The position numbers were made by a program, and so were the translations under genes. The notes beneath the pieces are model-generated. The model did not search any database. It had not been told where the DNA came from and saw nothing but the letters and a program-made list of their open reading frames with translations. A stretch of DNA of 64,000 nucleotides from an uncultured Gemmatimonadales bacterium (GTDB lineage Bacteria; Gemmatimonadota; Gemmatimonadetes; Gemmatimonadales; GWC2-71-9): NCBI GenBank assembly GCA_963798915.1, contig CAWCVB010000002.1, positions 192,001 through 256,000 of the forward strand. The letters run 5' to 3'. Positions 17,869-64,000 of the stretch are shown one piece after another. The stretch's first letter is position 1; the number at the start of each line of letters is the position of its first letter.

Positions 17869-18731
17869 TCACCCGGCCGGCAGCGGCGCGCGTGCCGCAA
17901 TCAGGGTGACGTTGTCGGTGCCGCTCCGCGCTGAAGCGCCAGCTCGAGCAGCGACCGGCAGAGCTGCTCGGACGAGGTCATCTGCTCGATCTGCTGCTTG
18001 ATCTCGGCGTTACTCACATGCTTGGTGAGGCCATCGGTGGCCAGCAGGATGACGCAGCCGCGGGGAATCTCGATCCGGCTCACCACCGGCACCGCCTCGT
18101 CCCCGCCGATGGCGCTCGCGAGGATATGGCTGAAGGGTGACTTCTCGAGACGGTCGGCCGGCATGACGCCCTGGTCCACCAGCCCCTGGGCAATGGTCTG
18201 ATCGCGGGTCATCTGGGTGAGCTCGCCATCCCAGTACCGGTAGCAGCGGCTGTCGCCCACCTGGGTGACATACATCCACGGGAAGACCGCGACGGCGAGC
18301 GTCAACGTCGTGGCCATTCTGGCACCGGGGTCCCCCGCCTGCTTCTCCCGCACCGCCGCATGCGCCTCCAGCGCCGCAGCTGTCAACGCCTCGTAGAACT
18401 CCGTGTCGGACGCGGCGCCGGCGGCGTGGTAGGATCGCAGCGACGAAGCGACATAATGCGTGACGGTAGCCAGGGCGAGCCGGCTGGCCTCGCCGCCTCC
18501 TGCGCCGCTGCCAACACCATCAGCCACCAGCATGTAAGTGGCGATGCGTTCGCCGCGGAGCGGGAGGGCATCTGCATCCGGCAGGCTGGTGCCGTGCACC
18601 ACCACCTGGGGATGGACGGTGCACACCATGAAGTGGTCGTGGTTGGCCTTGCGGACCAGACCGACGTGCGTAATGCCGAACAGGTCCAGCTCCACATCCT
18701 TCGGCCGAACCCACTGCAACTCAGATGACAT
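17869..18731 (-). CDS. PP2C/PPM-family Ser/Thr phosphatase; apparent frameshift near 17924
   Basis: ATG 18731 after GGAGG; VADGVG, VGDSRCY, TRDQT, LATDGL. The final GTDNVTLI motif lies in the adjacent frame and ends at TGA 17869. Confidence 0.9.
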
Positions 18732-21480
18732 GGTCGCATCCTCCAGTCCGTACGGCATCCTGCGCTGACTCAGTCCTTCGTTCGGGGCCCTGCCGGGAAC
18801 GATGTGCTCCCTGAGGACGAGGTGCATCGGCGTCTCCCCTCGCCGCTGCGCGGATGCGCCGCATCAGCAGGAAGCCCTTGCCGTCGGGGGTGAGGGCGTA
18901 CTGGCGGGTGTCATCGTTCTGCCAGTACTCGTCGGGCGCCCCCCGCCAGACAACCGATCGGCCACTGGCCGGGAAGGAGCCGCCGGTGTCCATCGTGGCG
19001 CCGATGATCGCTCCCTGGCCGGCCTGACGATAGTAGAGCGTCCGGCCGTCACGGCTCCAGAGCGGTTCCTGGCCCCCGCCGTTGGAGACCTGCACCCGGC
19101 CATCACCGACTTTCGGGAACGGCCGCACGATGATCTCCTTGGCTGAGCCGATCTTCTCGGCATAGGCCACCCAGTGTCCATCCGGTGACACCGCCGGCGA
19201 CGTTTCCTCGGCCTCGGTGGTCGCGATCGGGATCGTCGTGGTGTCGCCGCCGGTGCGGCGGGCGTAGATGTCACCGTTGCCGATGGCCACGTCGTCGGTG
19301 CGGTACAGCAGCCACTGTCCGTCGGGACTGAAGCTGATCTCGTAGACGCCGCGCGGCTCGTCGACGAGGATCGACGGGCTGCCGGAGCCATCGGCGGCCT
19401 GCTGCCAGACGGCGGCATGGCTGGCCGAGTCGACCGAGACCCAGGCGAGCCGCCGGCCATCGGGCGACCACACAGCGCGGGAACTCTGCGTCCCCATCAT
19501 GTTGAACAGGGTCGCCGGTCCGTCGGGATACGGCTTGGTGTACAGGCCGTAGGAGATGCCGTCACCCTCGACCTGGGAGAGGAGCAGGCGATGTCCATCC
19601 GGGGAAAGTTCGATTCGGCTGTTGTTGGCGAAGGCGCCGGTCCAGGCGGAATCCACCACGCGGGTGCTCCCATCGAACCCGGCCGCCACGAGTTGCGTCC
19701 TGCTGGTGAAGGTCTCCCCACCGCCGACTCCCGTGACCATCACCCCGTCGACGCCGATGCTCACTTCCGGGCCGAGGGCCGTCACCGCGATGCCGCGGGC
19801 GACGAGCGTGCCTTCGCCGATCGTCCCCGCGGTCGCGTCGAAGCTGGCGAGGAAGAGGGTGCCATCGGGGAGGAGGTTGAGGATGCGATTGCCTCGCAGC
19901 GGCCACGCGCCAGCCGAGCCGGGGATGATCCGGCGTCTGGAGAGCGAGTCGAGCCGGACCAGGGAGATGACCGGGGTGGCACAGCCGCCGATGTCACAGG
20001 CCGAGATGACGACGGCGTTCTGGCCCGGCACGGGAGCGACGGAGGCGGCCCAGCCGAGTAGCTGGTCCGCCGTGGCGACGCGGCGCACCACCCCGCCGGT
20101 GTCCGGCACCGTGTAGAGGATGCTGCTCGATCCGCCCAGAAAGACGATGGTGCCGTTCTCGAGCCAGGCGCTCCGGATGGAGACTGGACCGAGTACGGCC
20201 GAATCCGAGAGGAGCCTGGAGGCGCCACCGGCGAGGGGGATCCGGCGCAGCTGGTGGCCGACCGTGAATGCGACGGAGCGTCCATCGGGCGAGATCCCCG
20301 GGCCCGACCCTCCCTGCGTGCCGGGAATCGGGCGTGCCTCGGCGTCACCGCGCGCCTTGAGCCAGAGCTGCCGGGTGCCGCCCACGGTGTCGCTGTAGAC
20401 GATCAGCTCGCCGTCGGCGCTCACGGCCAGCTGGTTCGCGACGAACCCGACGTCCGATTCCGACGGGGTGAGGTGGATCTGGTAGGTGAGCGGGCTGCCA
20501 CCGCCGGCATCGCCAGCGCCCTTGCGGGTCCAGCCCACGATCGCGACCACCGCCAGCACGGCGGCGAGGACGCCGAGCGCCAGGAGGGCACGGCGGTCGG
20601 TGCGGACGGCGCGCCGGGTACCGGTGGTGCGTCGGGTCACCGTGCCGGTTCCCTCGAGCGCCGCCGCGAACTCGGCGGCGGTGGCGAAGCGGTCGGCGGG
20701 CAGCTTGGCGAGGGCCGTGAGCACCGCATCCTCGACCGTCTCCGGGACCGTGTCACGGATGTTCGACGGGGGCGCCGGCTTCTCGGTCATCACCTTGGCG
20801 ACGATCGCCTGCGCGGAGGAGGCATTGAACGGGGGGTCGCCGGTGAGCATCTCGTAGAGCACGCATCCGAGGGCATAGATGTCGGTCCGCGCATCGAGGT
20901 TGCGCTCGCCCATGGCCTGCTCGGGGCTCATGTAGTGCGGCGTGCCGAGTGACATGCCGGTCTCGGTCATCCGGGTGCCGCCGTCGGAGCGGCTGGCCGC
21001 GAGGGCGATCCCGAAGTCGGCGACCAGGGCACGGCCGTCGTGCAGCAGGATGTTCTCGGGCTTGATGTCGCGATGGATCACGCCGTGGCGGTGGGCGTAG
21101 TCGAGCGCGCCGGCGATCTCGGTGGCGATCCGCACCGCGTCGCTGATCGGCAGCTGCGTCTCGCGGTCGAGGCGGTCGCGGAGCGATTCGCCCTCGATGA
21201 ACGGCATCACGTAGAACACGGTACCGTTGACGGTGCCGGAATCATGCAGCGGCAGGATGTGCGGGTGCTGCAGGTTGGCCGTGGTCTTGATCTCCGAGAG
21301 GAACCGCTCGGCACCGATCACGGCGGCGAGTTCCGGCCGCAGCACCTTGATGGCAACCTGGCGATCGTGCTTGAGGTCTTCGGCGAGGTACACCGTGGCC
21401 ATCCCGCCCGCGCCGAGCTCGCGCTCGATGGTGTAGCGGTCGGCAAGGGCGGCGGTGAGGCGCGCGAATGGGGCGGTCAT
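18721..21480 (-). CDS. K17: Ser/Thr kinase-TM-PD40/TolB beta-propeller (3' end uncertain, possible frameshift ~18840)
   Basis: GAGGMATVY, HRDIKPEN, DFG, RMTETGMSLGTPHYMSPEQ; TM helix; repeated SPDG blades. Confidence 0.92.
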   Translation of the reverse strand: MTAPFARLTAALADRYTIERELGAGGMATVYLAEDLKHDRQVAIKVLRPELAAVIGAERFLSEIKTTANLQHPHILPLHDSGTVNGTVFYVMPFIEGESLRDRLDRETQLPISDAVRIATEIAGALDYAHRHGVIHRDIKPENILLHDGRALVADFGIALAASRSDGGTRMTETGMSLGTPHYMSPEQAMGERNLDARTDIYALGCVLYEMLTGDPPFNASSAQAIVAKVMTEKPAPPSNIRDTVPETVEDAVLTALAKLPADRFATAAEFAAALEGTGTVTRRTTGTRRAVRTDRRALLALGVLAAVLAVVAIVGWTRKGAGDAGGGSPLTYQIHLTPSESDVGFVANQLAVSADGELIVYSDTVGGTRQLWLKARGDAEARPIPGTQGGSGPGISPDGRSVAFTVGHQLRRIPLAGGASRLLSDSAVLGPVSIRSAWLENGTIVFLGGSSSILYTVPDTGGVVRRVATADQLLGWAASVAPVPGQNAVVISACDIGGCATPVISLVRLDSLSRRRIIPGSAGAWPLRGNRILNLLPDGTLFLASFDATAGTIGEGTLVARGIAVTALGPEVSIGVDGVMVTGVGGGETFTSRTQLVAAGFDGSTRVVDSAWTGAFANNSRIELSPDGHRLLLSQVEGDGISYGLYTKPYPDGPATLFNMMGTQSSRAVWSPDGRRLAWVSVDSASHAAVWQQAADGSGSPSILVDEPRGVYEISFSPDGQWLLYRTDDVAIGNGDIYARRTGGDTTTIPIATTEAEETSPAVSPDGHWVAYAEKIGSAKEIIVRPFPKVGDGRVQVSNGGGQEPLWSRDGRTLYYRQAGQGAIIGATMDTGGSFPASGRSVVWRGAPDEYWQNDDTRQYALTPDGKGFLLMRRIRAAARGDADAPRPQGAHRSRQGPERRTESAQDAVRTGGCDHVI

Positions 21481-63834: not shown

Positions 63835-64000
63835 CGGGGATTCACCGGACCCAGGTACTTGTCAAGCCAGGCGAGCGTCTCGCCGATGAGGCGTGGGCGT
63901 GGTACATCGTGACCCCCCTCGTACACCACCCACTTCTTGTCGGCGGGTGCAGTACCCAGTCGCTCGTAGAAGGGACGCTGCGCAGTCTCCGTCGGGAAGA
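63831..64000 (-). CDS. 3' end of a protein with an alpha/beta-hydrolase-like C-terminus (5' part outside the window)
   Basis: Hand translation FPTETAQRPFYERLGTAPADKKWVVYEGGHDVPRPRLIGETLAWLDKYLGPVNPR*; GGH catalytic-His-like motif; ATGA overlap with K1. Confidence 0.7.
   Translation of the reverse strand, partial: FPTETAQRPFYERLGTAPADKKWVVYEGGHDVPRPRLIGETLAWLDKYLGPVNPR

Follow-up and report, generated by a model that had tools for sequence, protein, structure and literature searches.

A long run of receptor-like kinase genes in an uncultured Gemmatimonadales bacterium, with sensors apparently exchanged between genera through kinase DNA

We analyzed a 64,000-nucleotide stretch of DNA, hereafter the window (positions 192001-256000 of contig CAWCVB010000002.1, here C2), from an uncultured Gemmatimonadales bacterium (GenBank assembly GCA_963798915.1, here G000). 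The window carries a tandem array of genes for receptor-like serine/threonine kinases, most of which join a kinase domain to a membrane helix and a C-terminal sensor. In our best reading, the main feature of this array is the exchange of sensors between genera through kinase DNA, which goes beyond the claims of an earlier note made from the letters alone (the sequence-only reading). Seventeen minus-strand Pkinase genes fill positions 18721-63834 with zero unrelated genes among them, and only the 3' tail of an eighteenth kinase gene (63831-64000) lies inside the window. The co-oriented array that the sequence-only reading described is larger than it claimed, as the true run comprises 22 consecutive kinase genes and reaches C2:269315 beyond the window. 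Nine further kinase genes, interspersed with unrelated genes, extend up to C2:314692. The genome has 56 HRDxKPxN motifs, and 31 of them, all on one strand, fall in the 104 kb at C2:210721-315013.

Probable sensor exchange between genera

Among 29 array genes, the kinase domains share a mean identity of 66% (47-92%), against 23% (11-57%) for the C-terminal parts. The "constant kinase" of the sequence-only reading is therefore correct in that kinases are more alike than C-termini, but they fall into several subtypes. Identical runs of at least 30 nucleotides occur in 45 of 378 kinase pairs, where they reach 155 nucleotides, and in none of 378 sensor pairs (first 900 nucleotides). Because the kinase DNA alone is similar among members, homologous recombination is expected to act between kinases.

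G000 shares sensors with two genomes of other genera, G201 and G383, at DNA identities of 98.6, 97.8, 93.5, 93.4, 89.7 and 87.9%. The differences are mostly at third codon positions, and the top four matches have no gaps. The K15 sensor (genes are numbered as in Table 1) is 87% identical in DNA to genes of both genomes, and K01 matches a G383 gene at 91% across 2.4 kb. As rpoB of G000 is only 81-82% identical to that of these genomes, sensors that match at 98-99% across genera cannot be explained by vertical descent. The number of synonymous substitutions per site (dS) relative to the other-genus match is 0.03 for the K18 sensor and 0.48 for its own kinase, and 0.06 and 0.31, respectively, for K10. 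Identity steps from at most 80% to at least 94% near the catalytic loop of K18, with a similar step in K19; in K10, K15 and K22 the step falls in the linker or the membrane helix. On its right side, the shared tract continues through the spacer into the following kinase, of which it covers the first 15-20 codons even though this gene is not an orthologue (K10 into K09, K17 into K16); no shared right edge was seen for K19. For instance, a G201 gene that is not the orthologue of K09 matches the 55-bp spacer upstream of K09 and the start of K09 (~15 codons), giving the right edge of the K10 tract; for the K18-K17 tract this edge consists of the first ~20 codons of K16, which again match a G201 gene other than the orthologue.

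We clustered the sensors of 169 full kinase genes from 11 genomes at 45% and obtained 81 sensor clusters. The same cluster can be joined to different kinase subtypes from one genome to another; that of K02, for example, is attached to at least five subtypes in other genomes. A match of at least 45% was found in another genome for 23 of 28 sensors, and within the own genome for 6 of 28. In FastTree phylogenies of 109 propeller genes from 10 genomes, 71 splits of the sensor tree are supported, and 54 of these are incompatible with supported splits of the kinase tree. The genome label changes 56 times on the kinase tree and 75 times on the sensor tree, compared with 78 times after shuffling (minimum 70); kinases group by genome and sensors do not.

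The congeneric genomes G161 and G149 keep their gene order, with sensors swapped at some slots under the same kinase subtype; array content thus differs among relatives, which supports the sequence-only reading. For 11 orthologue pairs between them, the ratio of nonsynonymous to synonymous substitution rates (dN/dS) is 0.06-0.26 in sensors and 0.01-0.12 in kinases, and 19 flanking genes range from 0.05 to 0.24. A further best match, the twelfth, proved to be paralogous, with a dN/dS of 0.51. No comparison exceeded 0.53, so positive selection was not detected at the level of domain averages. The "hypervariable sensor" thus holds for the C-terminal identity of 23%, but this variability reflects ancient divergence under purifying selection; the fast adaptive diversification that a dN/dS check was meant to reveal is not supported by the domain averages of 0.06-0.53. 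Given these low values, the sensors are conserved old types that are gained and lost whole.

We consider it probable that the array is a horizontally replenished repertoire of single-pass receptors with a shared output, shuffled by homologous recombination at the kinase. The mechanism of array turnover is well supported, while the signalling input and output are inferred. The array would build up without an integrase, as recombination between kinases would insert, replace or delete units, each consisting of the remainder of a kinase, the membrane helix, the sensor and the beginning of the kinase that follows. Incoming DNA of other Gemmatimonadales genera would integrate in this manner too, presumably through a RecA route. 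Sensors would thereby form a pool common to several genera while the kinases of one genome become alike, and this pattern is what the data show. In signalling, a ligand would bind the variable face of a periplasmic double PD40 propeller, bound receptors would cluster, and phosphorylation of the activation loop would switch on the kinases, which would act on a small set of common substrates. A PP2C of the family that travels with these kinases would then reset the phosphorylation. The clustering, phosphorylation and reset steps are modelled on PknB-type kinases.

Receptor architecture, array integrity and occurrence in relatives

The catalytic motifs are intact, as had been claimed: the Gly loop, VA[IV]KV, HRD[ILV]KP[ED]N, DFG and GTPxYMSPEQ are kept in all 16 open reading frames (ORFs) that start with a whole kinase, and Pfam Pkinase matches the 16 whole domains in the window at 146-187 bits (cut-off 31.7). 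The activation loop RMTETG(M/L)SLGTP is common to most of the kinases (11 of 17). By simple hydropathy, a membrane helix follows the kinase in 15 of 16 scored window ORFs (peaks of 1.8-2.9) and in 167 of 186 kinases of relatives; K11 peaks at 0.72 and is probably cytoplasmic. PD40 matches occur in the sensors of twelve window genes; the sensor of K15 is a domain like these but without annotation, and the remaining four genes have TPR or TolB-N-like/TPR sensors. The usual architecture is a Hanks kinase, a single membrane helix and a sensor module, with the kinase predicted to lie in the cytoplasm and the module, putatively ligand-binding, in the periplasm.

The K02 sensor, modelled with 110 homologues, is predicted to form two six-bladed propellers (pLDDT 92.7; blades counted from the strand list). 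A fold search returned only generic double propellers (TM-score 0.27-0.35), so the ligand cannot be read from it. By sequence, the nearest natural protein of solved structure to the second propeller is TolB (E about 1e-31), with the TolB model TIGR02800 scoring below threshold (79 bits against a cut-off of 343). Loop entropy is higher for b-c and d-a loops (2.88 and 2.55 bits) than for a-b and c-d loops (1.29 and 2.01 bits), and most insertions also fall on b-c and d-a, the face that usually binds ligands in propellers. This concentration of variation on one face of a double propeller, together with a helix in all scored window kinases but one, bears out the earlier notion of a receptor-like repertoire. 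The PASTA kinase model NF033483 scores 267-311 bits (cut-off 450), with no PASTA match in the window kinases. A PknD-type assignment (single NHL propeller) was ruled out by the PD40 repeats and the two propellers.

The PD40 sensor family is large (66,517 representatives at E<=1e-30, other PD40 proteins included) and common in Acidobacteriota. On a Gemmatirosa megaplasmid (NZ_CP007130.1, L141:19329-21668), the same double propeller follows an N-terminal domain that is not a kinase, which fits a sensor that is portable. Read by eye, this domain resembles a CadC/ToxR-like winged helix of the membrane-bound transcription regulator type. Gemmatirosa is a cultured host of this double propeller. Plasmid carriage of the sensor was found only on two Gemmatirosa megaplasmids, with no kinase-motif ORF among those listed for the 41 kb around the best sensor match.

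G000 is a metagenome-type assembly of 3.3 Mb in 17 contigs (84.8% complete, 0.82% contamination). In the window, 15 of the 17 kinases are single ORFs of 754-919 aa and two are split by frame changes. These changes are probably assembly indel errors, although true decay is possible: frame shifts also affect 3 of 40 control orthologues from other parts of the genome, including one at the position of rpoC, and G201 has an unbroken K13. For the same reasons, we rejected a programmed event as the cause of the splits. At C2:306641-309320, a kinase gene has several clustered frame changes and represents either an error-rich stretch or a decaying copy. Stop/start overlaps of 1, 4 or 8 bases at 13 of the 23 kinase-kinase junctions in the region suggest translational coupling. 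A sigma-70 promoter scan 5' of the 22-gene run gave zero sites, which says little at 66% G+C.

Table 1. Genes of the kinase array and its downstream end, with positions in the window
Feature	Position	Strand	Remarks
Amidase gene	16110..17801	-	Pfam Amidase E 4.7e-95; 99 bp downstream of PP2C; probably outside the signalling unit
PP2C-type Ser/Thr phosphatase, downstream end of run	17901..18758	-	Pfam PP2C_2 E 5e-14; last codons look frame-shifted
K01, kinase-TM (transmembrane helix)-double PD40 propeller, 919 aa	18721..21480	-	tail probably frame-shifted
K02, kinase-TM-double propeller, 891 aa	21477..24152	-	sensor 21480-23177 modelled as two six-bladed propellers
K03, kinase-TM-propeller, 883 aa	24149..26800	-	kinase 85% like adjacent K02; sensor 57% like distant K24
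K04, kinase-TM-propeller, 876 aa	26803..29433	-	
K05, kinase-TM-propeller, 865 aa	29568..32165	-	
K06, kinase-TM-propeller, 906 aa	32162..34882	-	
K07, kinase-TM-propeller, 882 aa	34879..37527	-	128-nt identical kinase run in common with K21
K08, kinase (divergent subtype)-TM-divergent propeller-like sensor with weak PD40, 878 aa	37609..40245	-	
K09, kinase-TM-propeller, 875 aa	40390..43017	-	
K10, kinase-TM-propeller, 897 aa	43073..45766	-	against G201 gene: sensor 97.8% DNA identity, kinase 91%
K11, kinase + TolB-N-like + TPR, 754 aa	45763..48027	-	without membrane helix
Kinase-TM-TPR gene	48050..50469	-	split by frame change near 49900
K12, kinase-TM-propeller, 878 aa	50557..53193	-	against K10: kinase 92% identical, sensor 24%
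K13, kinase-TM-TPR	53190..56157	-	split near 54230 into 673 + 339 aa; unsplit (986 aa) in G201
K14, kinase-TM-TolB-N-like/TPR, 791 aa	56154..58529	-	sensor 93.4% DNA-identical to G383 gene
K15, kinase-TM-sensor without Pfam match, 883 aa	58526..61177	-	sensor 21-27% like the propellers
K16, kinase-TM-propeller, 886 aa	61174..63834	-	
K17, 3' end	63831..64000	-	full K17 973 aa, with FGE-sulfatase-like ectodomain

Several genes depart from the common pattern or stand apart from the array. The ectodomain of K17 (L001:834-3752) has no propeller or TPR, and by eye a hydrolase-like part possibly lies behind the FGE-sulfatase-like part; its G201 orthologue is 91% identical. K22 (C2:274425-278351, 1308 aa) carries a C92 papain-like amidase in frame upstream of its kinase. 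Since separate 488-aa C92 genes lie upstream of kinases in G161 and G149, K22 is either a real fusion or has lost a stop codon. An ECF sigma factor gene (PF07638) is followed directly by a kinase-TPR gene at window positions 760-3947 on the plus strand, apart from the array. A second such pair lies at C2:289449-292740, and no ECF sigma gene stands beside kinases within the 22-gene run. A lone kinase-TPR gene (11978-14140, minus strand) lies 4.5 kb downstream of the array and has a sensor relative (53%) within the G201 array.

The activation-loop pattern was tallied over 401 genomes of the phylum and found in 185 of them. It occurs in 111 of the 166 family members, 62 of the 100 other genomes of the order, 11 of the 117 other genomes of the class and none of the 17 outside the class (two of these sub-tallies include the unpublished genomes G167 and G071). 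Of the 73 closest loci, all but one carry the name Gemmatimonadota, and 14 of the 73 loci around K02 relatives hold at least five kinases. From 15 comparison genomes picked for high copy number, we took eight. Their arrays contain 25 (G201, in 111 kb), 26 (G039), 26 (G383), 20 (G161), 17 (G149), 13 (G059), 10+6 (G067) and 9 (G388) kinase genes, nearly all co-oriented. Arrays of 13-26 kinase genes are thus present in six other assemblies from five other genera. The longest uninterrupted run in these high-copy relatives is 3-11 genes, against 22 in G000.

Neighbouring genes and competing explanations

We compared 143 of the 166 non-kinase genes in or beside arrays (passengers) with 148 control genes. 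Peptidase families (E<=1e-8) account for 13 of the 143 passengers and 2 of the 148 controls (Fisher p 0.003), amino-acid or peptide permeases for 5 and 1, and PIN domains for 8 and 0; glycosidases are also among the passengers. Such peptidase-rich neighbours favor nutrient sensing over phage defence. The likeliest ligands, judging from these neighbours, may be peptides and other biopolymer breakdown products in the periplasm, a suggestion to which we give slightly less than even chances. A 2-oxoacid:ferredoxin oxidoreductase operon on the opposite strand interrupts the arrays at C2:269602-274240 and at about 96000-100900 of G383:C11.

The PP2C of the window has orthologues at 79% in G161 and G149, and its family is present in 237 of the 401 phylum genomes. 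Outside the order, 11 genomes have this family and 11 have the kinase pattern, with 7 in common (these relatives are not independent). The phosphatase occurs in 6 of the 11 array regions compared, terminal in G000 and internal in G014, G388 and G067. The "one terminal phosphatase" of the sequence-only reading therefore follows the last kinase here and belongs to a family co-distributed with the kinases, but it is not terminal in all relatives; it is a cognate but non-fixed part of the array. Four genes for FHA-domain proteins, which are candidate substrates, lie elsewhere in G000.

The genes could instead form an innate-immune array, in which sensors detect molecules of phages, predators or competitors, the kinase triggers dormancy or death, and turnover reflects an arms race. 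Rapid turnover and transfer of content, variation on one propeller face and the PIN toxin-antitoxin genes among the passengers would fit this explanation, yet we regard it as improbable. No dN/dS value exceeds 0.53, and the passengers are peptidases, permeases and glycosidases. The phage or defence context envisaged earlier was not borne out either, as none of 44 proteins (unannotated passengers and some window proteins) matched PADLOC, and the anti-phage kinase models MADS6 (MAD6, about 150-180 against 460) and PglW (<100 against 990) stayed far below their cut-offs. Pairs of antitoxin and PIN genes stand singly between kinases in the G039, G383 and G015 arrays and in about a dozen of loci L017-L089, and none lies inside the kinase run of the window. 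These pairs could stabilise arrays against deletion. That a long-read assembler fused kinase genes of several co-occurring Gemmatimonadota via their similar kinase DNA is very improbable. Although the assembly is of the metagenome type and contains indel errors, arrays of comparable size recur in the six other assemblies, synteny is found between independent congeneric genomes, contamination is just 0.82%, and the junctions differ from one another, often with a stop/start overlap. Moreover, the shared tracts are graded in identity, differ at third codon positions and contain no gaps.

An origin by tandem duplication and birth-death, with occasional gene conversion between neighbouring kinases, would make the sensors old vertical paralogues and leave their clustering without special meaning. 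It would account for purifying selection on sensors, conserved synteny between congeners, kinases homogenised within a genome and the large size of the sensor family. This explanation is already weakened, because adjacent sensors are not closest kin and match other genomes far more often than their own, and because of the near-identical sensor DNA in genera that differ by 18% in rpoB; we consider it rather unlikely. Several points nevertheless weigh against the reading that we propose. A sensor tree without genome structure also follows from old paralogue lineages alone, and all recent cross-genus tracts are confined to G000, G201 and G383. Leader linkage is supportive but marginal, and its pairs are not independent: across pairs, similarity is 0.64 for the next gene's leader against 0.54 for the own leader and 0.55 for the background (n=16, p 0.046), or 0.70, 0.61 and 0.63 for strictly coding bases (n=19, p 0.058). 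The same kinases are dispersed in many relatives, and their function may therefore not depend on clustering. The peptidase enrichment is overstated, since controls contain core operons and some passengers are orthologues, and it lends only moderate support to nutrient sensing. Regarding the vehicle of the sensor DNA, ComEC is present in G000, DprA was not found (genome 85% complete), and viral carriage of the activation-loop pattern was seen in zero stretches.

Comparison with known systems

If true, horizontal exchange of sensors would represent an undescribed bacterial way of collecting a large receptor repertoire. Receptors would evolve in a modular fashion by a simple route, with the catalytic domain also serving as the anchor for recombination. 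The array makes up about 3% of G000 and would be the longest run of serine/threonine kinase genes reported for a bacterium as far as we could find, compared with five in a published cluster. The similarity of the kinase DNA explains how such loci stay hidden in short-read assemblies of this widespread but barely cultured phylum. The 81 sensor clusters from 169 genes would also provide a natural library of propeller binders with a common kinase readout, in which ligand discovery is testable with chimeric receptors.

Single-gene receptors such as PknD and PknB of Mycobacterium tuberculosis have the order kinase, transmembrane helix and extracellular domain, with NHL or PASTA ectodomains. The array kinases resemble them in this order, in being RD kinases and in their activation-loop threonines, and PknD also has a propeller sensor. 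They differ in having two PD40 propellers and no PASTA (NF033483 300 bits against 450). Plant receptor-like kinase clusters, which also group single-pass receptor kinases with diverse ectodomains, are an analogy only, because the array lacks domain-wide positive selection and its diversity arrives horizontally. Sedentary chromosomal integrons are long co-oriented arrays of exchangeable units that turn over among relatives and contain toxin-antitoxin pairs. The kinase arrays share all of these traits, with the toxin-antitoxin pairs interspersed in relatives. Unlike in integrons, the genes overlap at stop/start codons and breaks fall inside a coding domain. No integrase lies within 200 kb of the array (four PF00589 genes, the nearest ~230 kb off, in a genome 85% complete), and a crude pattern scan gave no convincing attC site (none in G000 spacers, 24 unvetted matches elsewhere). 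We tentatively describe the array as an integrase-free "receptor integron", which may well prove too far-reaching a name: one chromosomal Gemmatimonadales platform in which the kinase gene would be the recombination site, sensors would be captured across genera, expression would be stop/start-coupled and signals would enter one phosphorylation circuit, giving a heritable, community-updated repertoire of 20-30 receptors.

The chromosome of Streptomyces coelicolor also has Hanks-type kinase genes in succession: the pkaH-pkaJ cluster (SCO4775-4779) consists of five independently transcribed genes with 93-173 bp spacers (PMC4416010). G000 differs in having 22 genes in a row, overlaps at 13 of 23 junctions and cross-genus sensor exchange. 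PMC9484751 describes staphylococcal esaG and streptococcal tipC as tandem, non-identical immunity paralogues that recombine via conserved homology blocks. As in that system, tandem paralogues expand, shrink and recombine in the kinase arrays, where conserved blocks flank variable regions and recombination falls at those blocks. However, esaG and tipC encode small immunity proteins within one species, whereas the array encodes receptors of ~900 aa, its block is a catalytic domain and exchange crosses genera. PD40 and TPR domains are commonly tethered to prokaryotic kinases, to which WD40 domains are also joined (PMC2877116), and Solibacter (Acidobacteria) has an expanded kinase paralogue family without positive selection (PMC3174227); these domain combinations and expansions are known, and the portions of both papers at hand mention no tandem array or module exchange. 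Nor are such arrays mentioned in the available parts of PMC9426454 and bioRxiv 10.64898/2026.09.01.748587. In line with the sequence-only reading, which knew of no earlier report, our searches of open-access full text brought up no account of comparable arrays in Gemmatimonadota (subscription papers and supplements were outside this scope). The parts and the recombination principle are thus known, while their combination and scale appear undescribed; new are the size of the array, the recurrence of giant arrays and the recent cross-genus transfer of sensors with kinase-anchored edges.

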